Source: an uncultured Chromatiaceae bacterium (GTDB lineage Bacteria > Pseudomonadota > Gammaproteobacteria > Steroidobacterales > GCA-2729495). Taken from it: 45,905 nt of DNA. Numbering within the stretch: the first letter of the stretch is position 1; each line of letters starts with the position of its first letter. Below the pieces are notes generated by a model. That model made no database searches and was not told where the DNA came from. It worked only from the letters and a program-made list of their open reading frames with translations. The stretch lies in the NCBI GenBank assembly GCA_964384295.1, contig CAYLLI010000001.1, positions 1 to 45,905 of the forward strand. Reading direction: 5' to 3'. Made by a program: the position numbers and the translations under genes. Shown here piece after piece: positions 4,374 to 40,021 of this stretch.

Positions 4374-6455
4374 TTGAACACTGACGAATTCAAAGCGCCG
4401 GAAAATTACATTAATCGCGAGACCAGTGCGCTCGCTTTTAATCAACGTGTGCTGGCAATGGCCAGCAACCCGGAAACACCGTTGCTTGAGCGACTCAAGT
4501 ACGTATGCATTGTGTCGACCAACCTTGATGAGTTTTTCGAAATCCGTGTCAGCGGATTAGCGCAGCGGCTCGAGGCCGGCAAGATCTCCTACGGTCCTGA
4601 ACTGCTTCATCCTCAGGACATTCTCGACGAGGTACGCCTGACGGCCCGCGACATTATTCGCCAGCAGTACGAACTGCTTAACAACGACATTCTTCCGCAG
4701 TTGGCGGAGGCAGGCGTTCGCTTCGTCAGGCGGGACAACTGGAGCGATGAGCAGCGCAAATGGCTTAACGATTTCTTCCATCGGGAAATAGAACCTGCAC
4801 TGAGCCCCATCGCTCTGGACTCCGCGCGCCCGTTTCCCCGCATCCTGAATAAGAGCCTGAACTTTATCGTTGGCCTGGACGGAGTTCACGCATTTGGCAG
4901 ACGTTGCAAACGGGCAATCGTACAGGCACCACGTTTGCTACCCCGCTTAATCAAACTGCCGCCGGAGCTCTCGGGTGATGGCTCACAGGATTACGTTTTT
5001 TTATCGTCGATTATTCATGCCTTCGTCGACGAGCTGTTTCAGGGCATCAAAATTGAAGGGTGCTACCAGTTCAGAGTAACCCGCAATAGCGACCTGTATG
5101 TTGATGACGAGGAAGTCGAGAATTTGATGGCTGCGCTGGAAGGCAAACTCGCGTCGCGCCGCTACGGCGACGCGGTGCGGCTGGAAGTAGCCAATGACTG
5201 CCCCGCTAATCTGACGTCTTATCTTTTGTCGCAGTTTCACCTGACAGAGGACGATCTGTTTCCGGTGGATGGGCCCGTTAACCTCAATCGACTCATGTCT
5301 ATTTATGACGTAACAGGCATGGATCACCTGAAGTTCCCTCCGCTGCAACAAAGCATGCCGATGGCAGAGCTGGGAGAAAACAGCATTTTTTCAGTCATGC
5401 GCAAGCAAGACATTCTGCTGCATCACCCGTACCAGTCGTTTAATCCTGTGCTTGAGTTTATTCGCCAGGCATCACTGGATCCGAAAGTCATTTCTATCAA
5501 GCTCACTCTCTATCGCACAGGTCCCGAATCGCCCATTGTGGAACACCTGCTGGTAGCCGCGCGTGCCAACAAAGAGGTCACTGTTCTGGTCGAGCTTCGC
5601 GCGCGCTTTGACGAGGCGGCCAATATCAAGCTGGCAACAAGACTTCAGGAAGCCGGCGCGCATGTCGTTCACGGTATCGTCGGATTTAAAACTCACGGCA
5701 AAATGGCGCTCGTCGTGCGGCGCGAAAAAGGCAAGTTGATGCGGTACGCGCATCTCTCAACCGGCAACTATCACGCTCAGACGGCTCGTGTTTATACAGA
5801 CTATGGCCTGTTCACGACAGATCCGGCGCTCACCGAAGACGTCCATAATGTCTTGATGCAGATCACCAGCATGATGCAAACGCCGCCACTTCAGAAGCTA
5901 ATTCAGGCACCTTTCGAGCTGCATCAAAGGCTGATCGAAATGATCAACCGTGAGGCTGACAACGCCAGCAACGGTAAGCCGGCCAGAATCATCACCAAGC
6001 TCAATGCGCTTGTTGAACCCGAAATTATTCAAGCCCTCTATGCCGCTTCCGCCGCAGGAGTGCAGATTGACCTCATTGTCCGCGGCATTTGCTGTTTGCG
6101 GCCCGGGGTTGCCGGAATCTCGGAAAACATCAGAGTGCGATCCATTATCGGCCGCTTTCTGGAGCATTCTCGCGTGTATTACTTTCTGAATGACGGCGCA
6201 GAAGACGTTTACTGTGCCAGCGCCGACTGGATGGATCGAAACATGTTCCGCAGGGTAGAAGTTTGTTTCCCCATCGAGGTTGCGGATCTGAAGCAACGCC
6301 TTATCGACGATCTGAATGTTTATCTTTCAGATAACGAGTTAGCCTGGGAACTCGCCAGCGACTCCAGCTACAAGAAAGTATTACGGGCCGCCGGTGCAAA
6401 ATCGGTATCGTCACAGCAATATTTTCTGGAAACGGTCGCAGATCCTAGCCAGTAG
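4374..6455 (+). CDS. ppk: polyphosphate kinase 1
   Basis: 693-aa ORF of full PPK1 length. It has the phosphohistidine region FKTHGKMALVVRRE and C-terminal PLD-like HKD-type segments (GRFLEHSRVYYF). TTG start at 4374; there is no nearby in-frame ATG. Confidence 0.93.
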   Translation: MNTDEFKAPENYINRETSALAFNQRVLAMASNPETPLLERLKYVCIVSTNLDEFFEIRVSGLAQRLEAGKISYGPELLHPQDILDEVRLTARDIIRQQYELLNNDILPQLAEAGVRFVRRDNWSDEQRKWLNDFFHREIEPALSPIALDSARPFPRILNKSLNFIVGLDGVHAFGRRCKRAIVQAPRLLPRLIKLPPELSGDGSQDYVFLSSIIHAFVDELFQGIKIEGCYQFRVTRNSDLYVDDEEVENLMAALEGKLASRRYGDAVRLEVANDCPANLTSYLLSQFHLTEDDLFPVDGPVNLNRLMSIYDVTGMDHLKFPPLQQSMPMAELGENSIFSVMRKQDILLHHPYQSFNPVLEFIRQASLDPKVISIKLTLYRTGPESPIVEHLLVAARANKEVTVLVELRARFDEAANIKLATRLQEAGAHVVHGIVGFKTHGKMALVVRREKGKLMRYAHLSTGNYHAQTARVYTDYGLFTTDPALTEDVHNVLMQITSMMQTPPLQKLIQAPFELHQRLIEMINREADNASNGKPARIITKLNALVEPEIIQALYAASAAGVQIDLIVRGICCLRPGVAGISENIRVRSIIGRFLEHSRVYYFLNDGAEDVYCASADWMDRNMFRRVEVCFPIEVADLKQRLIDDLNVYLSDNELAWELASDSSYKKVLRAAGAKSVSSQQYFLETVADPSQ

Positions 6456-10278: not shown

Positions 10279-10375
10279 AAGTCTGCTGAATTTCCGCCCG
10301 CGACATTGTTCCACAATCGCATTTGTGCCGCCACGATGTCATCATCGCGCTTCACCGCTAAACCACGGGCCGACC

Positions 10376-11353
10376 ATGCAACGAACTCTCTGCCTTATCG
10401 CTTTACTGCTGTTGTCGGGACTTGTTGTTCTGACAGCCCTGGCTGTGGGGAGCGCATCGTTTTCTCTGGCAGAAACGTGGGCAAGCCTGAACGGCAGTGG
10501 CGACCCGATGGCTCGCCAACTGATTCTTGAGTTGCGGCTGCCGCGCACACTGACGGCTTTTGGCACAGGGGCTGCACTGGCGGTGGCCGGAGTATTTATG
10601 CAGGTGCTGTTGCGCAACCCTCTGGCGGACCCCTACATATTGGGTACGTCCGGTGGTGCGGCAACCGCTGCACTTCTGGCGATATCTTTGGGCGCTTCCG
10701 GCTTCCTGCTAAACACCTTTGCGTTCGCAGGAGCACTGTTCAGCACACTTCTGGTGTTTGTTCTGGCGCGCTCGAGCGGCGGCTGGACTCCCGGAAAGTT
10801 GCTGTTAACCGGTGTCGTCACTGCCGCGGGCTGGGGAGCGCTGGTCACTCTGATGCTGACATTGGCATCCGATACCAATCTTCGGGGCATGTTGTTCTGG
10901 CTGATGGGCGACTTTTCGTTTGCGGCAACTCCGACGCCCATTCTTTTAACCGCAGCCGCCTCCGTAGTTGTCGGAATGGCTTTGTCGCGTTCGCTGAACG
11001 TTTTGGCAACCGGCGAAGATCAGGCGATGCTTCTCGGTGTCAGTGTCGGGCCGCTGCGAACCGGGCTCTACCTGATCAGTTCGCTGTTGACCGCCGTTGC
11101 CGTTACAACCGCCGGCACCGTCGGCTTCGTCGGACTTGTCATACCCCATTTGATTCGACTGATCACAGGCTCGGATCACCGCATCGTCTTGCCGTGTTCG
11201 GCGCTGGCCGGTGGATCTCTTCTGGTTGTTGCAGACCTGCTGGCTCGCACGGCAGTGGCGCCGCAACAGCTTCCGGTAGGTGCAATTACCGCAAGCATCG
11301 GCGTGCCGTTGTTCCTGATCCTGCTAAGGAATAATCGCAGCAGTTTTAGCTAA
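10376..11353 (+). CDS. FecCD-family ABC permease, probable vitamin B12 importer BtuC-type subunit
   Basis: Polytopic membrane protein with FecCD/BtuC-type segments (ELRLPRTLTA, NPLADPYILGTSGGAA, VGFVGLVIPHLIRL). Start taken at ATG 10376 (MQRTLCLIALLLL). The B12 assignment is inferred from the BtuF-like and PduO genes 3.5-6 kb away. Confidence 0.75.
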   Translation: MQRTLCLIALLLLSGLVVLTALAVGSASFSLAETWASLNGSGDPMARQLILELRLPRTLTAFGTGAALAVAGVFMQVLLRNPLADPYILGTSGGAATAALLAISLGASGFLLNTFAFAGALFSTLLVFVLARSSGGWTPGKLLLTGVVTAAGWGALVTLMLTLASDTNLRGMLFWLMGDFSFAATPTPILLTAAASVVVGMALSRSLNVLATGEDQAMLLGVSVGPLRTGLYLISSLLTAVAVTTAGTVGFVGLVIPHLIRLITGSDHRIVLPCSALAGGSLLVVADLLARTAVAPQQLPVGAITASIGVPLFLILLRNNRSSFS

Positions 11354-11354
11354 G

Positions 11355-12449
11355 TTACGACTCGCCGCGACCTTCAAGGTATGCTCTGCCCGATTCCATC
11401 AGGGCAACAAACGCGTCCTCATCACCACTGCGGATACAGTCGGTAATGTTCTCTATCGCTGCAGCCAGACCTTGCAGCGGCTCAAGACCGAAGTGATTGA
11501 GGGACTGAATCTCGTAGTACAGATGCGGGTTTTCGCGGGCTACTTTGGTTGCGACGCTGAGCTGGGCATCAAACGTTGTGCTCGAGATATTGGCCAGACG
11601 CGGAACGCGCTCGCCGCTGTCAGCAAGGACAGAAAAGAAGGCAATATTCAACGCGTGCGACAAGCCAAGCACGTATGCGATCAGCCGGTCATGGTCCTCC
11701 AGCGACATCTCGGTTTGCAGTGCCATCGTGGAATCAAACAAGCGACGCGCCTGTGCAGTTGCCTCGGGGCAGCCGGCATCGAGAAAGAGCACGTGTTTAT
11801 CAGACAACAACTCAGCATCCGGGCCAAACATCGGATGGATCGAGGTGACCTGAATGCCGGCAGCAGCCATCGCGCGAAGGCTTTTCAACAACGGGCTTTT
11901 CAGCGACCCGACATCAAACACCAACCCTTGTCGCCCTGACGTCGCCATTTCTTCGAGAATTTCGACCGTTGTGCTGAGCGGCGCTGCAACGACGGTCAAT
12001 GCAAAGTTATCCTCGGCATCGTGCCAGTCGGCGAGCGACGTCACGCCTTCAACGCTCCCGCCGGGGTCGGCGACCACCACATCAAAGCCCTGAGAATCCA
12101 GAAAGTTAACAAACCACTGACCCATTTTGCCGGCGCCGCCGATCACCAGCGCCCGACTTCCTGAACCCCGCCCCTCAGCACGGACCCGCGCCCGCTCCTG
12201 CTTCGTCAACGAGGAGTGAATCAGCATGGCCATCAGGTGTTCGGCCAGGTCGGGCTGCAAGCCCAGGGTCTCTGCCTGCTGCCTCGCCCCGTCGATCACT
12301 TCCTTTTCGCGGGCAAAGTCACGCGTCGCACGCCCCTCGGCACGCTTAAACTGACCCACTTCATCAACAATGCTCTGGCGCTCGGCAATCAACTCAAGCA
12401 GCTGACGATCGACCTCGGTGAGTCGCTGGCGCAGTTCTTTAAGGTCCAT
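11355..12449 (-). CDS. tyrA: bifunctional chorismate mutase / prephenate dehydrogenase (T-protein)
   Basis: 364-aa ORF. The N-terminal AroQ chorismate mutase helix is LKELRQRLTEVDRQLLELIAERQ. It is followed by a prephenate dehydrogenase Rossmann fold (ALVIGGAGKMGQWF). Confidence 0.88.
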   Translation of the reverse strand: MDLKELRQRLTEVDRQLLELIAERQSIVDEVGQFKRAEGRATRDFAREKEVIDGARQQAETLGLQPDLAEHLMAMLIHSSLTKQERARVRAEGRGSGSRALVIGGAGKMGQWFVNFLDSQGFDVVVADPGGSVEGVTSLADWHDAEDNFALTVVAAPLSTTVEILEEMATSGRQGLVFDVGSLKSPLLKSLRAMAAAGIQVTSIHPMFGPDAELLSDKHVLFLDAGCPEATAQARRLFDSTMALQTEMSLEDHDRLIAYVLGLSHALNIAFFSVLADSGERVPRLANISSTTFDAQLSVATKVARENPHLYYEIQSLNHFGLEPLQGLAAAIENITDCIRSGDEDAFVALMESGRAYLEGRGES

Positions 12450-12552
12450 TAAATACGGTTACTCAAAAAATGGGGGGCAGAATCGTTCTTCTCTGATTAG
12501 ACGACGCGAAGATAGCATGTCGCCCTTGGCTCAGTATTGCTTATACTGCTGA

Positions 12553-13710
<1,158 letters not shown>

Positions 13711-13725
13711 TCGCGTTCACCGTTT

Positions 13726-14364
13726 ATGACCTACCTTCCCGAACCACTGCCCGCAGACCCGCTCAGCATTTTTGAATCCTGGCTGGATCAGGCAATGGCT
13801 GAACGCGCAAGGCCCAACCCCAACTCGATGTCGCTGGCTACCGTCAACGCATCGGGGCAGACCAGCGTGCGGGTCGTTCTGTGCAAGCAGCTCGTTGTTG
13901 AGCCGGGCTATCTTGTGTTCTATACCAACTACGATTCGGCGAAGTCGGCAGACATCGCCGGCAATCCCAGAGCGAGCTTTCTGATGCATTGGGACGAACA
14001 CGGCAGGCAGATCCGGGGCGAAGGCTTATTGGTTAAATCGCCGGCTGAAGAGAGCGATGCCTATTTTATTAGCCGCGACCGTGGCAGCAGAATCGGCGCA
14101 TGGGCGAGCCGGCAGAGTAGTCCGGTAGCATCCCGCGAGGCGCTGGAGGCACAGTTTGCCAGTGCTGAGGCCCGCTTTGCAGGCATTGACGTGCCGCGAC
14201 CTGACAACTGGGGCGGTTATCGGCTTTGGTTTTCTGCCCTCGAGCTTTGGCTGAACCTGGAATCGAGGCTACATGACCGCGCGCGCTGGGAGAGGGAGTT
14301 AGCGAGCACTCCGGCAGGGGTCAGCGCATCCGAATGGCAGTGCATTGGCAGGCTGCAGCCCTGA
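13726..14364 (+). CDS. pdxH: pyridoxamine 5'-phosphate oxidase
   Basis: 212-aa ORF with a PNPOx-family layout: the N-terminal FESWLDQA helix, an SVRVVLCK core and the C-terminal LWLNLESRLHDRARWER segment. Confidence 0.88.
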   Translation: MTYLPEPLPADPLSIFESWLDQAMAERARPNPNSMSLATVNASGQTSVRVVLCKQLVVEPGYLVFYTNYDSAKSADIAGNPRASFLMHWDEHGRQIRGEGLLVKSPAEESDAYFISRDRGSRIGAWASRQSSPVASREALEAQFASAEARFAGIDVPRPDNWGGYRLWFSALELWLNLESRLHDRARWERELASTPAGVSASEWQCIGRLQP

Positions 14365-14555
14365 TGTAGCAGTGGCTACAGCCGCTGTCGAATTACATTA
14401 CACCCGCAATGGTCGCAATTCTGCTGCGCCCGCGAAGTTCCTGAGGGCCGGCCCTCCCTGACTGTCGGGAAAAGTGACAAGCGTGCATTACCAGCACGCC
14501 GGTTGCTGTGCACAGAAAACCATAAATAATTGTTTTTTATTAATTTTTTAAAATC

Positions 14556-14571
14556 TGGCACAGGCTTTGCA
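14556..14571 (+). promoter_or_regulatory. sigma54 (RpoN) -24/-12 promoter
   Basis: TGGCAC-AGGCT-TTGCA is an exact match to the sigma54 consensus TGGCAC-N5-TTGCW. It is preceded by an AT-rich tract (14520..14553) and four dyad symmetries (14443..14515) that could be enhancer-binding-protein or IHF sites. Confidence 0.75.
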
Positions 14572-14581
14572 AGTTAATTCC

Positions 14582-14806
14582 TGCGCACAACAGAGTTTCT
14601 ATGAGTGATAGCTCTTTCGGTCTTTGGATGTCATTACTGACTTTGTCGGCAGGGGTACCAAAGCAAACAACAATAAGAACAACAACAATTAGAAGAAAAA
14701 CGAAAGAACAACAACAATAAGAACGCAGACGTCACCCGCTAGATGAAACTGTATTCGCGACAACAACAATAACCCGTAAACCCCACTGCCCAGTGGGGTT
14801 TTTTTT
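14582..14806 (+). ncRNA. candidate sigma54-dependent A-rich sRNA (CrcZ/CrcY-like Hfq/Crc sponge)
   Basis: The transcript is bounded by the sigma54 promoter (predicted +1 near 14582) and a strong intrinsic terminator. It has in-register AAN triplet runs of 8 (14666..14689), 3 (14693..14701), 7 (14704..14724) and 4 (14762..14773). The 15-mer AACAACAATAAGAAC is repeated exactly at 14666 and 14710. There is no convincing ORF or RBS. Confidence 0.6.
14781..14806 (+). terminator. Rho-independent terminator
   Basis: CCCCACT-GCCC-AGTGGGG forms a 7-bp GC-rich stem with a 4-nt loop, immediately followed by eight T residues (14799..14806). Confidence 0.85.
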
Positions 14807-14876
14807 GCCCTTAGGAACGCCACTTGGCCAATGACACATGGCACACTGTGCAACTTCGCCTAACACGGACGACCTG

Positions 14877-15644
14877 ATGGCAACGCCACTTCGTTGCAAG
14901 CAACTGAGCATATCGGTTGCCGGCAGAACACTCGTAGAAAACCTCGACTTTGAGCTGCCCAACGGCTCAGTCACTGCCCTGCTTGGTTTGAATGGCAGCG
15001 GTAAAACGCTGACGTTGCATACGCTGGCAGGCATCCGCAAACCCGCAGGCGGCTCGGTCGAGCTGCTTGGCGAGGACATCGCCACTCAGAGCCGGCGGCA
15101 AATTGCCGGCAGCCTCGGACTCCTGCTACAGAGTCATGAAGATGCGTTTCCGACCACGGTTCTGGAGGCAGTACTAATGGGCAGACATGCGCAGCTGGCT
15201 TTCTGGGAACAGGAAACCGCGGCAATGCAGGACGAGGCTATGGATTTGCTCAAAGCTGCCGGACTTGAGGCACTGGCGGGACGTCAGGTGAGCTCGCTGT
15301 CAGGTGGCGAACGTCGGCGCACGGCTATTACAATGCTGCGAATGCAGAACCCGGATGTGTGGCTGCTCGACGAGCCAACCAATCATCTCGACCCTCAGCA
15401 TCAGATGGGCGTAATGGAATTGCTGGAGCAGCTGGCGACAGCTGGCAAAACCATTGTGACCAGCATTCATGATCCGATGCTTGCGGCGCGCTTCGCTAAC
15501 TATGCTCTGCTTCTTAATGGCGACGGCTCGTGGGAGTTCGGACCGGTCAACGAACTGCTAACCCCTGAGAACATGACGAAACTCTATTCCATTCCTTATG
15601 AGAACATCAGCGGCGCCCGCTTTAATGCGCTAGTGCCGCGATAA
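14877..15644 (+). CDS. ABC transporter ATP-binding protein, FecE/BtuD-type (probable B12 importer ATPase)
   Basis: Walker A GLNGSGKT, ABC signature LSGGERRR, Walker B VWLLDEPTNHLD. The start is either ATG 14877 (preferred, MATPLRCKQL) or ATG 14838. It is followed by a cobalamin adenosyltransferase gene. Confidence 0.85.
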   Translation: MATPLRCKQLSISVAGRTLVENLDFELPNGSVTALLGLNGSGKTLTLHTLAGIRKPAGGSVELLGEDIATQSRRQIAGSLGLLLQSHEDAFPTTVLEAVLMGRHAQLAFWEQETAAMQDEAMDLLKAAGLEALAGRQVSSLSGGERRRTAITMLRMQNPDVWLLDEPTNHLDPQHQMGVMELLEQLATAGKTIVTSIHDPMLAARFANYALLLNGDGSWEFGPVNELLTPENMTKLYSIPYENISGARFNALVPR

Positions 15645-15717
15645 ACCTGCCAATTCAGATTCATCCGTTTCCGCTAAACTAGCGAATACCTAGCCAACTC
15701 AACTTCAGGAAAGCTTC

Positions 15718-16260
15718 GTGGGCCACAGACTCAGCAAAATATATACCCGCACCGGCGATGACGGCTCGACCGGACTCGGCAACGGCGACCGCGTCAGAAA
15801 AGACGATCTGCGGGTGGAAGCGTTTGGCACCGTCGACGAGCTAAACAGCACGATCGGTATCGTCCTGAGTCACGGTATTCCTGATGAGCTCGCAAAGATC
15901 CTCACCGAAGTGCAGCATGATCTGTTCAATCTTGGCGGCGAGCTCTGCATTCCGGGCCACACGATGATTACAGCTGACACAACCCGGCAACTTGAAACCG
16001 CCATTGATCAGCTCAACGAAGATCTGCCACCGCTTAAAGAATTTATCCTGCCCGGCGGCGGGGTCGCTGCAGCTCATTGCCATCTTGCCCGGACAGTCTG
16101 CCGGCGCGCCGAACGACGCACGCTGTCGCTGGCAGCGGCGGAGGACGTCAACGCCGAAGCACTCAATTTCCTGAACCGCTTGTCCGACCTACTCTTTGTT
16201 ATGGCCCGCACGCTGTCGCGGCACGAACAAGGTTCAGAGGTATTGTGGTCCAGAGATTAG
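15718..16260 (+). CDS. PduO-type ATP:cob(I)alamin adenosyltransferase
   Basis: 180-aa ORF with the PduO-family N-terminal ATP-binding motif KIYTRTGDDGSTGL and the helical-bundle core. GTG start at 15718. Confidence 0.88.
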   Translation: MGHRLSKIYTRTGDDGSTGLGNGDRVRKDDLRVEAFGTVDELNSTIGIVLSHGIPDELAKILTEVQHDLFNLGGELCIPGHTMITADTTRQLETAIDQLNEDLPPLKEFILPGGGVAAAHCHLARTVCRRAERRTLSLAAAEDVNAEALNFLNRLSDLLFVMARTLSRHEQGSEVLWSRD

Positions 16261-17141
16261 GGTGACGCTTTCGCAGCGCGCACACGCTGCAGCCCTGAGC
16301 ACACCTGTTCAGCACCGTCGGCAATTCTCAGGCTCGACCGGCTGATCGCGTCCCGATCCACACTGATAAGCGAATCGTTCTGAACCGCGGTAACAAGCTC
16401 AAAGTTTCGCCATGCTTCACGCCAGTCTGCCTCAGTATCATCCCCCACAGGCGCGAGAATAATCTCCGGATCCGCTGCAATGACAGACTCCAGAGCTACA
16501 TCGGCCGCTAACGTAGGCAATTTGGCAAACACATTCTGACCACCGCAGCGCGCCATAATCCGGCTGATCATGTGTTCACCATTGACGGTGTACCAGGGCG
16601 CCGCAGAAATCTGAAAGAACACGCGCGTATCCGGACTCGCACCATATCGATCCCAGACCTTGTCCAGCGCAACGAGATACTGATCCGCAGCCGTGTTCGC
16701 AATCTCCTGCGTACCCGCTGCGTCACCGATCAGGCGCACATGCCGGGCAATATCCTCCAGCGTTGACGGCTCCAGCACCAACAAGTTGTAGCCGAGATCA
16801 CGCAGCCGCTGCCGCATAGCTGCGGGATTGCCGGATTCCCAAACCAGTATCAGGTCCGGTTTTAGCAACGCAAGTTGCTCAAAATCAATGCGGAAAGAAT
16901 CACCGATACGAGGCAATCGGGCAGCTGCTTCCGGATAATCACTGTACTCAACCGTGGCAACCAGATAATCACCGGCACCCGCCGAGTATGCGAGTTCGGT
17001 CAGACTCGGCGCCAGCGAGACAATCCTGAGCGGCTGTGAGGCGCCGATGGGAACCGATTCAGAATCAGCATCGCGCTTCGAACACCCGAAGATACTGAGG
17101 AGCACAGCCATCAGGCTGATCAGGCAGAGAGCGACACGCAC
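16257..17141 (-). CDS. btuF: periplasmic cobalamin-binding protein (BtuF-like), lipoprotein
   Basis: The signal peptide has a lipobox (LLSIFGC). There is BtuF-like similarity: IVSLAPSLTELAYSAGA, YSDYPEAA, LKPDLILVWESGN. Its 3' end overlaps the PduO gene by 4 nt (convergent). Confidence 0.8.
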   Translation of the reverse strand: MRVALCLISLMAVLLSIFGCSKRDADSESVPIGASQPLRIVSLAPSLTELAYSAGAGDYLVATVEYSDYPEAAARLPRIGDSFRIDFEQLALLKPDLILVWESGNPAAMRQRLRDLGYNLLVLEPSTLEDIARHVRLIGDAAGTQEIANTAADQYLVALDKVWDRYGASPDTRVFFQISAAPWYTVNGEHMISRIMARCGGQNVFAKLPTLAADVALESVIAADPEIILAPVGDDTEADWREAWRNFELVTAVQNDSLISVDRDAISRSSLRIADGAEQVCSGLQRVRAAKASP

Positions 17142-36674: not shown

Positions 36675-37730
36675 TCAGCCAAAGTTGATCGAGGCTTCCA
36701 GGTTCGTGCGCGAGTCTGCGTTGGCCAGCGCTTCTTCCATGCTGATCCGACCGCTTTTGTACAATGCAAGCAAGGCCTGATCAAAGGTTTGCATGCCCTG
36801 TTCAGAACTGGAGGTAAAGGCCTCTTTCACCTCGGGAACCTCGCCGCGATTAATCAGTTCGGCGATGTGTGAGGTATTAATCATCACTTCCACGGCGGCT
36901 ACCCGCTTACCGTCGACCCCGGACACCAGCCGCTGCGACACGATCGCCCGCAGATAGTGGGACAAATCCATGTAGATCTGCCGGTGCTGGTCCTGCGGAA
37001 ACATATTAATGATGCGGTCGAGGGTTTCCGGCGCATTATTCGAGTGCAGCGTGGCGACAACAAGATGGCCGGTACCCGCCAGATTGATCGCAGCCTGCAT
37101 CGATTCACGATCACGAACCTCACCAATCATGATGACATCAGGCGCTTCACGCATCGCACTTTTCAGCGCGCGCGAATATGACTTCGTATCAACGCCAACT
37201 TCACGTTGGTTCACGATCGAACGCTTGTTCGGGTGCAAAAACTCAATCGGGTCTTCAATCGTAATGATGTGCGAAGAGGTTCGGTCATTGCGGTAGTTCA
37301 GCATGCCGGCCAGCGTCGTCGATTTACCGTTACCAGCCGAGCCGACCATCAGCACCAGGCCTCTGCGAAACATGATCAGCTCTTTAAGGACCTGCGGAAC
37401 GCCAAGATCATCAAGGGTCGGCAGGTCTGTCGTAATGTGTCGCAGCACCATGGCGATGTTGCCGCGCTGCATGAATACGTTGACGCGAAAGCGGCCAAGA
37501 CCGGGCTTTGAAATTGCGAAATCGATCTCCAGCTCTTTAGCAAACTGATCCAGCTGACTCTCGTCCATGAGTTCAATTGCCGCCTGCTTCACCATCTTTG
37601 GCGTCAGCTCGAGCTGGTTGACGGGCATGATTTTGCCGTCGATTTTAATTTTTACGGGCGCATGCGAGGTGAAAAACAAGTCGGAGGCATGCTTCTCAAC
37701 CATCAGCTTAAACAGCGGCGCTACATTCAT
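36675..37730 (-). CDS. PilT/PilU-family type IV pilus retraction ATPase, additional paralogue
   Basis: 351-aa ORF. The N-terminus is PilU-like (LFKLMVEKHASDLFFTS). Motifs are Walker A GSAGNGKST, Asp box ITIEDPIEF, Walker B DVIMIGEVRD and an intact His box GHLVVATLHSNN. Confidence 0.85.
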   Translation of the reverse strand: MNVAPLFKLMVEKHASDLFFTSHAPVKIKIDGKIMPVNQLELTPKMVKQAAIELMDESQLDQFAKELEIDFAISKPGLGRFRVNVFMQRGNIAMVLRHITTDLPTLDDLGVPQVLKELIMFRRGLVLMVGSAGNGKSTTLAGMLNYRNDRTSSHIITIEDPIEFLHPNKRSIVNQREVGVDTKSYSRALKSAMREAPDVIMIGEVRDRESMQAAINLAGTGHLVVATLHSNNAPETLDRIINMFPQDQHRQIYMDLSHYLRAIVSQRLVSGVDGKRVAAVEVMINTSHIAELINRGEVPEVKEAFTSSSEQGMQTFDQALLALYKSGRISMEEALANADSRTNLEASINFG

Positions 37731-37780
37731 TATTTACTCGCAAACAGTTAGTTTCAGAGGCACGGATTAACCGCCGCGGT

Positions 37781-38944
37781 TTACGTAAGCACCGTCTGCT
37801 GGTGGCCTTCATCCAGCAAAGACAAGCTTTTATCGAATTCAGCATCGGTGTTTCTTTCGCGCTTACTCTCAAGTTTGATCCGCAGGCGCAGTTCATTCTT
37901 CGAGTCAGCATTGCGCATCGCCTCTTCGTAGGAGATCAACTCCTGCTCGTAGAGCACAAACAACGCCTGGTCAAAGGTCTGCATGCCGAGTCGGGTCGAC
38001 TTCGCCATGATCTCTTTAATTGCAGCAACTTCACCTTTAAAGATCAGGTCAGCGATCAGCGGCGAGTGCAGCATGATTTCCATGGCAGCCACACGTCCGT
38101 CGCCGTTCTCCTTCGGAATCAGGCGCTGCGAGATCAGTGCCCGGACGTTAAGCGACAGGTCCATAAGAAGCTGCGAACGCTTCTCTTCCGGGAAGAAGTT
38201 AATAATCCGGTCCAGCGCCTGGTTGGCGCTGTTGGCTTGCAACGTAGCGAGGCAAAGATGCCCGGTTTCAGCAAACTGCACGGCATACTCCATCGTCTCG
38301 CGATCGCGGATCTCGCCGATCATGATGACATCGGGAGCCTGTCGCAGCGTGTTTTTTAGCGCTGCGTGCCATGAATCGGTATCAACACCCACCTCGCGCT
38401 GCGTAATGACACAACGACCGTGGGGATGCACGTACTCCACCGGATCTTCAATTGTCACGATGTGGCCGCGCGAGCTTTCGTTCCTGTGCCCGACCAAAGA
38501 CGCCAGCGTAGTCGACTTACCTGAGCCCGTTGCACCCACGACGATAACGAGGCCACGTGAGATCATGGCAACGTCCTGCAGCACCGGTGGCAGCATCAGC
38601 TCCTCAACCGTCGGAATACGCGTAATAATCCGGCGCAGTACCGCGCCTACATGGCCCTGCTGAATAAATGCACTGACACGAAAGCGACCGATGTTCGCGG
38701 GGTTAATCGCAAAGTTGCACTCTTTGGTCGCGTCAAATTCCTTGGCCTGCTTGTCGTTCATGATGGAGCGGACCATCATCGCGCTGTTATCCGGTGTCAG
38801 CGGCGATTCAGCGGCGCGATGCAGATCTCCGTCGATTTTGATCGCCGGAGGAAAATCGGCGGTGATGAACAAGTCGGAACCGCCCTTTTCAACCAGCTTC
38901 TTCAACAGCTGCTGCATCAGTTTTGTCGCTTGATCTCTTTCCAT
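37781..38944 (-). CDS. pilU: type IV pilus ATPase PilU
   Basis: 387-aa ORF collinear with P. aeruginosa PilU (LVEKGGSDLFIT, Walker A GATGSGKST, TIEDPVEY, DVIMIGEIRD, long C-terminal tail). The His box reads GHLCLATLQANSANQ, so the second histidine is Gln. Confidence 0.88.
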   Translation of the reverse strand: MERDQATKLMQQLLKKLVEKGGSDLFITADFPPAIKIDGDLHRAAESPLTPDNSAMMVRSIMNDKQAKEFDATKECNFAINPANIGRFRVSAFIQQGHVGAVLRRIITRIPTVEELMLPPVLQDVAMISRGLVIVVGATGSGKSTTLASLVGHRNESSRGHIVTIEDPVEYVHPHGRCVITQREVGVDTDSWHAALKNTLRQAPDVIMIGEIRDRETMEYAVQFAETGHLCLATLQANSANQALDRIINFFPEEKRSQLLMDLSLNVRALISQRLIPKENGDGRVAAMEIMLHSPLIADLIFKGEVAAIKEIMAKSTRLGMQTFDQALFVLYEQELISYEEAMRNADSKNELRLRIKLESKRERNTDAEFDKSLSLLDEGHQQTVLT

Positions 38945-38980
38945 TCCCTTGCTCCGTAGGCCGCCTCAATGCAGTACCAA

Positions 38981-40021
38981 TCAGAAGTTTTCTTTGTTGA
39001 CCGCTTTGAAACGGGCCTCTTCCTTGCTGATCACACCTGACTCCAGCAGGTTCTGCAGATTCTGATCGAGGGTTTGCATACCCTGGGCCTGGCCCGTTTG
39101 AATAGCTGAATACATTTGCGCAATCTTGCCTTCGCGAATCAGATTCCGGATCGCGGGCGAGCCCATCATAATTTCGTGTGCGGCAACACGACCGCCGCCA
39201 ATGCGCTTCAATAACGTTTGTGAAATCACCGCCCGCAGCGATTCGGACAACATGGAGCGGACCATCTCTTTCTCTGCAGAGGGGAACACATCGACAATAC
39301 GGTCGATGGTCTTCGCCGCAGAGCTCGTATGAAGCGTTCCAAAAACAAGATGGCCTGTTTCCGCTGCCGTCAATGCAAGACGAATCGTTTCAAGGTCTCG
39401 CAGCTCACCCACCAGAATAACGTCCGGGTCCTCACGCAGCGCTGAACGCAGCGCCTCTGTAAAACCATGCGTGTCACGATGCACCTCGCGCTGGTTCACC
39501 AGCGACATATGGCATTCATGCACAAACTCGATGGGGTCTTCGATCGTCAGAATGTGATCCGGACGGTTCTTGTTGATGTAATCGACCATCGCAGCGAGTG
39601 TCGTGGACTTACCCGAACCGGTAGGCCCGGTAACCAGCACAATGCCGCGCGGGGCCATAGAAACATCTTTAAAGATCGCCGGAGCCATGAGGTCATCCAG
39701 CGATAGAATGGTAGAAGGAATGGTACGGAACACAGCACCGGCACCACGGGCGTGGTTAAACGCGTTCACCCTGAAGCGGGCCAGCTTCGGTATCTCAAAC
39801 GAGAAGTCGGTTTCCAGAAACTCTTCGAAATCCTTACGCTGCTTGTCGTTCATGATGTCGTACACCATGCTGTGTACGTCTTTATGGCTCAGCGAAGGCA
39901 TGTTGACCCGTTTAACATCACCATCCACCCGAATCATCGGCGGCACGCCCGCTGACAGATGCAAATCTGACGCGTTATTCTTCACCGAAAAGGCGAGTAA
40001 TTGAGCAATATCTACGGCCAT
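38981..40021 (-). CDS. pilT: type IV pilus twitching motility ATPase PilT
   Basis: 346-aa ORF, very close to P. aeruginosa PilT over its whole length (LLAFSVKNNASDLHLSAGVPPMIRVDGDV, GPTGSGKST, TIEDPIEF, DVILVGELRD, GHLVFGTLHTSSAAKT, AIRNLIREGK). Confidence 0.95.
   Translation of the reverse strand: MAVDIAQLLAFSVKNNASDLHLSAGVPPMIRVDGDVKRVNMPSLSHKDVHSMVYDIMNDKQRKDFEEFLETDFSFEIPKLARFRVNAFNHARGAGAVFRTIPSTILSLDDLMAPAIFKDVSMAPRGIVLVTGPTGSGKSTTLAAMVDYINKNRPDHILTIEDPIEFVHECHMSLVNQREVHRDTHGFTEALRSALREDPDVILVGELRDLETIRLALTAAETGHLVFGTLHTSSAAKTIDRIVDVFPSAEKEMVRSMLSESLRAVISQTLLKRIGGGRVAAHEIMMGSPAIRNLIREGKIAQMYSAIQTGQAQGMQTLDQNLQNLLESGVISKEEARFKAVNKENF

Follow-up and report, generated by a model that had tools for sequence, protein, structure and literature searches.

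A candidate Hfq-titrating small RNA with a sigma-54 promoter and AAN tracts, from an apparently uncatalogued family of Woeseiaceae and uncultured relatives

We analysed a singleton metagenome contig (CAYLLI010000001.1; 45,905 bases, hereafter the window, to which all coordinates refer), in which a small RNA (sRNA) of ~225 nt lies between pdxH and a Btu/Fec-type ATP-binding cassette (ABC) ATPase gene. The RNA is very probably the product of a real, independent gene and, judged by comparison of related loci, it represents a previously uncatalogued sRNA family of Woeseiaceae (Gammaproteobacteria) and uncultured relatives. It follows a sigma-54 promoter with two activator-binding sites, carries three tracts of AAN triplets and ends at an intrinsic terminator. 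Our best reading, in which our confidence is about evenly balanced, is an Hfq-titrating sRNA that is driven by sigma-54 and an enhancer-binding protein and is CrcZ-like without being homologous to CrcZ. A CrcZ-like sponge had been proposed at this locus in an original prediction made from the letters of the window, and all of its coordinates and strings are present as written.

The small RNA gene, its distribution and its promoter

The limits of the gene follow from conservation. Exact look-ups of the window's PdxH and FrmA proteins returned no record. Relatives of its PdxH (62-69% identity) occur on contigs where the genes are in the same order and the spacer measures 590-730 bp, and we aligned these spacers (alignment A1). 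The spacer in the window had been put at 512 bp; this is right if ATG 14877 is taken as the ABC ATPase start, as in the relatives. The longest open reading frame (ORF) starts at 14838. In A1, conservation is limited to a 17-bp dyad, the AT-rich tract, both promoter elements (-24/-12) and the stretch from TGCGCAC to a T-run; it is absent from the stop codon of pdxH up to the activator site and again past the T-run. Conservation of the transcript begins at TGCGCAC (14582), 12 nt past the GC of the -12 element, and ends at the T-run. Thus, the terminator-bounded unit of the original prediction is indeed kept as a unit while the flanking spacer varies.

A metagenome scan with part of the 3' block of the RNA yielded further variants, and an iterated nhmmer profile of 11 distinct window-clade transcripts (alignment A2) recovers the RNA at 51 loci. 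A Woeseia-clade alignment (A3) holds 17 sequences, and the family set as a whole comprises 36 distinct full-length variants and 40 distinct promoters. Among 80 GTDB loci fetched via PdxH, in all of which PdxH is ≤55% identical, 27 have the RNA; these are labelled Woeseiaceae, Woeseia, Lentisalinibacter (three cultured species) or unclassified, and none of the Steroidobacteraceae-labelled loci in this sample has it. In the NCBI taxonomy, Lentisalinibacter belongs to the family Woeseiaceae of the order Woeseiales. Because homologues of the window's TyrS at 76-82% identity are labelled just "Gammaproteobacteria" or "Chromatiales bacterium," the window clade can be placed only as Woeseiaceae-related. 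In the GTDB loci that have it, the RNA follows an amidohydrolase gene and lies ~2.5 kb past pdxH; the gene on its 3' side is an ORF without a Pfam match, not an ABC ATPase gene. Since the neighbours differ in these loci, we regard the RNA as a gene of its own and not as a leader of vitamin B12 genes.

The transcript and the elements upstream of it are as follows.

14582-14806, + strand: small RNA, ~225 nt, from the predicted +1 to the end of the T-run, defined by conservation limits and nhmmer recovery
14556-14571, + strand: sigma-54 promoter, -24 TGGCAC and -12 TTGCA, TGGCACAGGCTTTGCA
14520-14553: AT-rich tract containing a motif like that for integration host factor (IHF), TAAATAATTGTTT, at 14523-14535 (YAA-N4-TTGWTW)
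14463-14479: proximal activator-binding site (UAS1), TGTCGGGAAAAGTGACA, the TGTC-N9-GACA dyad, with half-sites invariant in A1
14386-14402: distal activator-binding site (UAS2), TGTCGAATTACATTACA, matching YGTCR-N7-TKACR

The exact sigma-54 promoter that had been called is the sole zero-mismatch TGGCAC-N5-TTGCW in the window, and TGGCA[CT]-N5-[CT]TGC is found in all 40 family promoters. Four dyads had been listed upstream of it: TGTC-N9-GACA is conserved as UAS1, but GAGGGCCGGCCCTC, GCGTGC-N7-GCACGC and CTGTGCACAG lie in sequence that A1 does not conserve. UAS1, written [TC]GTC[GA]-N7-T[GT]AC[AG], begins 91-95 nt (mostly 92) upstream of TGGCA in 40 out of 40 promoters, and a copy of the distal site, which the original prediction overlooked, lies 170-288 nt upstream of the -24 element in 38 of them. 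The AT-rich tract had been noted as well, and its IHF-like motif is held at a fixed offset: in 31 of the 40, TGGCA is preceded at 33-34 nt by a relaxed form, YAA-N4-YTGWWW. This motif is the reverse of the IHF consensus, WATCARNNNNTTR (PMC3045617). Across 895 kb of related loci there are 53 combinations of such a site with a sigma-54 promoter, every one at this RNA.

With its GG-N10-GC core, an activator site at least 70 bp upstream and an intervening IHF or bend site, the promoter anatomy is, as far as motifs can tell, the classic enhancer-dependent layout. The conserved anatomy suggests that transcription would start from the sigma-54 promoter and depend on RpoN. An enhancer-binding protein would be needed at the two 17-bp YGTCR-N7-TKACR sites, the proximal one 92 nt upstream of the -24 element and the other farther away, while bending by IHF at the fixed AT-rich site would aid activation.

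The activator site differs from that of CbrB. In published work (PMC8871633, PMC6296734), CbrB binds TGTTAC-N12-14-GTAACA-N15-19-GTAACA, and CbrAB is said to be confined to Pseudomonadaceae; the site conserved here is YGTCR-N7-TKACR and not TGTTAC-N12-14-GTAACA, which speaks against the CbrB-type control implied by the original prediction. Among published sites the most similar is TGTCN10GACA, which GlrR recognises at the glmY/glmZ promoters, themselves dependent on sigma-54 and IHF (PMC3045617). GlmY and GlmZ of Enterobacteriaceae thus share with this RNA a sigma-54 promoter, several TGTC...GACA-type sites and IHF sites. The spacing differs, however (N9 here and N10 for GlrR), the right half is often TTACA, and there are two sites rather than three. 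GlmY also works through protein sequestration, but of RapZ and not of Hfq, and it is without AAN tracts; we found no Rfam match to GlmY/GlmZ and no sequence or structure similarity between them and this RNA. We take GlrR as a lead and not as an assignment. NtrC, suggested by the GCGTGC-N7-GCACGC dyad (14481-14499), was dropped as a candidate activator because that dyad is not conserved.

Three further observations concern the promoter region and strings like it. A terminator scan of the minus strand called GGCGTGCTGGTAATGCACGCT with a T-rich tail at 14480-14500, which is the GCGTGC-N7-GCACGC dyad; it is not conserved in relatives and does not mark the end of any minus-strand gene, so the call is probably due to chance. 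A second sigma-54-like string, TGGCACAGGGGCTGCA, lies at 10561-10576 inside a btuC-like ORF without an upstream YGTCR-N7-TKACR; with ~0.4 such matches expected, it is probably a chance match too. Promoters of the Lentisalinibacter clade have an additional palindrome, GTTGTT-TGTC-AACAAC, ~35-55 nt upstream of the -24 element (L028 6838-6860, with equivalents in L017, L030, L031 and L038), where other clades have only the IHF-like motif. It may be the site of a clade-specific regulator.

AAN tracts, helices and terminator

Within the transcript, the AAN tracts are set among helices that were derived from an RNAalifold consensus on the window-clade alignment and mapped to window coordinates.

14582-14619, + strand: conserved 5' block, from which the 5' strands of P1, P2, P3 and P4 come
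14582-14586 / 14757-14762, + strand: helix P1, UGCGC with GCG-CA
14594-14599 / 14745-14750, + strand: helix P2, AGUUUC with GAAACU, two compensatory changes
14603-14612 / 14725-14739, + strand: helix P3
14613-14619 / 14701-14707, + strand: helix P4, UCUUUCG with CGAAAGA
14620-14664, + strand: variable hairpin (CUUUGG...CCAAAG in the window), which folds in 11 of 11 variants with differing sequence and length
14666-14701, + strand: AAN tract 1, eight units (14666-14689), UAG and three units (14693-14701), in the loop closed by P4
14704-14724, + strand: AAN tract 2, seven units, between the 3' strands of P4 and P3
14725-14762, + strand: region of the 3' strands of P3, P2 and P1
14753-14786, + strand: block ATTCGCGACAACAACAATAACCCGTAAACCCCAC, 34 nt, holding tract 3 and nearly identical in the 11 window-clade variants
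14762-14773, + strand: AAN tract 3, four units, between P1 and the terminator
14778-14806, + strand: intrinsic terminator, a 10-pair stem AAACCCCACU/AGUGGGGUUU with a 4-nt loop and T-run, from the terminator scan and minimum free energy (MFE) fold

The AAN runs of 8, 3, 7 and 4 units and the exact 15-nt repeat AACAACAATAAGAAC at 14666 and 14710 are real at the positions originally given. Counting both strands, runs of at least four AAN units occur just three times in the whole window, all within 14666-14773. The RNA has 22 triplets in runs of at least three AAN units, while 2000 shuffles of its own composition gave a mean of 1.0 and a maximum of 10; since the shuffles fall far short, the periodicity is not explained by A-richness. 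Within tracts 1 and 2, both A columns have an entropy of 0, and the third column ranges from 0.95 to 1.82 bits. The AA is thus invariant and the N free, and selection therefore acts on the motif AAN and not on a particular sequence. The number of tracts varies by clade (two in Woeseia, three in the window clade and about four in Lentisalinibacter, with AAU expansions in L036), yet the motif is retained in all clades despite this variation in tract number and length. The Hfq distal face has six tripartite A-R-N pockets and binds the motif (ARN)n (PMC4063720). The tract pattern is the signature expected from binding to this face, and the RNA probably binds Hfq through its AAN tracts.

Could the tracts be translated instead, or serve another protein? 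No ORF is shared among the variants, whose frames and lengths differ and which have no common start codon. Tracts 1 and 2 are mutually out of frame, a TAG follows tract 1 in 9 out of 11 variants (it is missing in L091 and L100), and a deletion shortens the 5' block of L095 by 7 nt. Depending on the variant, the tracts would read as N/K, Q or I/T. Judged from these frames, the RNA is non-coding, and we dropped a coding or leader-peptide reading for want of a conserved frame across variants. We consider it improbable that the RNA encodes an Asn/Lys-rich micropeptide or attenuator leader, or that the A-rich tracts bind another protein such as S1 or a Crc-like protein. Ribosomal protein S1 does bind A/U-rich single strands, AAN in frame gives Asn and Lys codons, and third-position drift is also typical of coding sequence; against this stand the missing common start and frame, the two tracts out of frame with each other, the TAG lost in L091 and L100, and the fact that (AAN)n is a defined motif of the Hfq distal face (PMC4063720). 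A sponge for CsrA/RsmA (Rsm) was likewise rejected because the RNA has a single GGA.

The helices join the 5' block to near-3' sequence and covary. In the window clade, 92.5% of cells are paired, compared with ≤50% when partners are slid, and there are five pairs with double changes, compared with 1.0 ± 0.9 in shuffled alignments (0/500 reach this number). A separate test of A3 gave 97.2% of cells paired (≤41% slid) and 19 double-change cells, where shuffling gave 6.4 ± 2.8 (0/500). The Woeseia helices GUAACUG:CAGUUAC, CGGUAA:UUACCG (four compensatory changes) and GGAU.UAGA:UCUG.UAUC surround AAN tracts, so that this clade has the design of the window clade in different sequences. Altogether, this suggests that long-range helices keep the AAN tracts in loops and linkers. 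One variant, L087, has GTGCAAAAAAAAAAGG at 5941-5952 where all others have GTGCGCACAAAAAAGG and loses the 5' GCGCAC of helix P1; the change may be a homopolymer assembly error or a natural variant.

A GC stem and T-run close all 36 distinct full-length family members. In the window, the terminator scan writes the match as AAACCCCAC-TGCCCA-GTGGGGTTT plus the T-run, the whole hairpin being AAACCCCACTGCCCAGTGGGGTTT. Upstream of and into this hairpin, the block at 14753-14786 is nearly constant (L100 differs at four bases and L081 has one extra ACA triplet), although clade PdxH is only 62-69% identical to that of the window where compared.

This block brings in the main rival, a class II Hfq-dependent base-pairing sRNA like ChiX and MgrR, in which the AAN tracts and U-tail would be an anchor and a conserved unpaired stretch the seed: GCGACAACAACAAUAACCCGUAAA in the window clade or GAUCCAGAUCC in Woeseia. 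A U-tailed terminator together with AAN motifs is the signature of class II, of which MgrR is a member, and both are present here, implying the use of distal and proximal Hfq faces as in ChiX, MgrR and CyaR. Moreover, the block is kept beyond what maintenance of the motif needs, and the Woeseia clade too has invariant blocks that are not AAN. However, the window-clade block is not kept in Woeseia or Lentisalinibacter, whereas the AAN tracts are, and three separate tracts, expanded in L036 and others, exceed what an anchor requires. Class II sRNAs are 80-110 nt long and sigma-70 dependent, with one ARN stretch and defined seeds; this RNA is twice as long, predicted to be sigma-54 dependent, and has its three tracts on a clamp of long-range helices. 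We hold class II membership to be rather unlikely, and it would be compatible with some titration of Hfq.

Surrounding genes and the leader alternative

The genes that flank the RNA, and a third that follows, are listed here.

13726-14364: pdxH, upstream of the sRNA
14838-15644: Btu/Fec-type ABC ATPase ORF, downstream of the sRNA; relatives start at the equivalent of 14877
15718-16260: PduO adenosyltransferase gene, after the ABC ATPase gene

Coupling to these B12 genes, proposed in the original prediction, would make the RNA a cis-acting leader of the ABC ATPase and PduO genes, with a sigma-54 transcript mostly halted at 14806 and regulated read-through. The adjacency holds throughout the window clade wherever examined (window, L081, L084-L092, L095 and L100) and persists in L100 despite different upstream genes; in addition, no sigma-70-like promoter was detected at 14000-15200. 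Outside this clade it fails: in Woeseia and Lentisalinibacter the neighbour is the unrelated Pfam-less ORF, yet the RNA, promoter and terminator are kept. The terminator is strong (10-pair stem, U8), no conserved antiterminator pairing was seen, the sequence past the T-run is unconserved, and Rfam gave no leader match and no cobalamin riboswitch anywhere in the window. A leader function is thus very improbable.

Near the ATPase gene, CATGGCACACTGTGC lies ~40 nt upstream of the start and is kept in 8 out of 11 clade variants (window 14836-14880, L081 6270-6305, L084 6205-6245; not in L091, L092 or L095). It begins a short upstream ORF (MAHC..., 11-16 codons), which in relatives stops at or overlaps the ATPase ATG (CCCTGATGA) and in the window is fused in frame (ATG 14838). 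While CATGGCACACTGTGC resembles TGGCAC, its spacing is GG-N8-GC and so it is not a sigma-54 promoter; the region may encode a coupled leader peptide or be bound by a regulator.

The B12-type uptake genes of the window (10325-17141) are split. A btuC-like permease gene (10325-11353) is set apart from the ATPase and PduO genes by tyrA, frmA, pdxH and the sRNA. The genes btuF (16257-17141), ampE and ampD are on the opposite strand to the ABC ATPase and PduO genes. Elsewhere in the window, three neighbouring genes for PilT/PilU-family ATPases (36675-40021, minus strand) are one more than the usual pilT-pilU pair.

Proposed Hfq titration and comparison with CrcZ

CrcZ of Pseudomonas is 407 nt long, has six A-rich stretches, binds the Hfq distal face and titrates Hfq (PMC4063720). 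CrcZ, CrcY and CrcX resemble this RNA in many respects: all are stand-alone non-coding RNAs with a sigma-54 promoter, an upstream activator site, an IHF site, a start of GC(G)CACAA, several single-stranded A-rich (ARN)n tracts of hexamer size and an intrinsic terminator at the end. By analogy, they may also be alike in action, through titration of Hfq at its distal face. The differences are equally plain. This RNA has 225 nt and three tracts, compared with 407 nt and six in CrcZ, which bears out the original estimate of about half the length; its activator site is not the CbrB consensus, its gene is away from cbrB, and its host order is Woeseiales. As had been predicted, the locus is not beside cbrAB, which is not found in the window.

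Homology to the Crc RNAs was checked with Rfam covariance models and was not supported. No Rfam 15 model has a match at its gathering threshold in the window or in six family loci, and an e-value scan of 14300-14900 has no Crc model at E≤10. The best CrcZ (RF01675) score anywhere is 11.5 bits, on the Lentisalinibacter member L028, compared with a gathering threshold of 95. Permissive matches (rnk leader, AgvB, Trp leader and others) were dismissed as terminator-driven noise. By these models, the RNA is not a member of the CrcZ family. Conservation of promoter, AAN tracts and terminator in relatives, on the other hand, is present, and the family seems to be new and apparently convergent with CrcZ.

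Two hexamer-sized tracts, a shorter third, a U-tailed terminator and an inducible sigma-54 promoter suggest an Hfq-binding sRNA that is likely a titrator. In this model, the transcript would be ended by its strong intrinsic terminator, and the helices would hold two AAN tracts looped with the third just before the terminator. Each tract of four to eight units could fit the ARN pockets on the distal face of one Hfq hexamer. Once its activator turns the gene on, the RNA would take up one to three Hfq hexamers, pulling Hfq off the mRNAs that Hfq represses and acting as CrcZ does in Pseudomonas under a different activator; some link to carbon use is conceivable. That titration is its main role is plausible, though we put it slightly short of an even chance.

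Several results weigh against this reading. The RNA has two to three hexamer-sized tracts, where CrcZ has six. The block at 14753-14786 is constrained in sequence and not just in motif, as would be expected of a base-pairing seed or a site for a specific partner more than of a simple sponge. The MFE of the window RNA is not below that of shuffles (z = -0.67), and a search of the window, with its tiny sample of ~40 genes, found no notable ARN-rich ribosome-binding sites. Nor do the window and the fetched loci supply the expected partners. The window has no crc, hfq or rpoN; tblastn with P. aeruginosa Hfq and Crc (the latter query 100% identical to PDB 4jg3) has no match in the window or in 104 loci; a six-frame search of the window and these loci (895 kb) for a GAFTGA-type activator is empty; and rpoN is absent from every fetched locus as well.

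On a wider and more tentative reading, Woeseiales may have independently evolved a regulator of the CrcZ type: a sigma-54- and enhancer-run RNA that titrates Hfq via AAN tracts on a helical clamp, without CbrAB and possibly without Crc. This reading, which is possible but which we do not favour over its denial, includes a so-far unknown two-component or enhancer-binding system that recognises YGTCR-N7-TKACR. In the literature searched, the Hfq-titrating protein-sponge RNAs are CrcZ/Y/X of Pseudomonadaceae only, with no CrcZ-like RNA found outside that family, and no work on regulatory RNAs or sRNAs of Woeseiaceae or Woeseia turned up. Because the family occurs in the ubiquitous marine-sediment Woeseiaceae, including cultured Lentisalinibacter, the hypothesis is directly testable, and the rigid promoter, with two 17-bp sites of which one is at a fixed 92 nt, provides a handle for finding the activator and its signal. 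If the RNA titrates Hfq, then the strategy arose at least twice, and sequestration of Hfq by an inducible decoy RNA would be convergent and recurrent rather than a peculiarity of Pseudomonadaceae.

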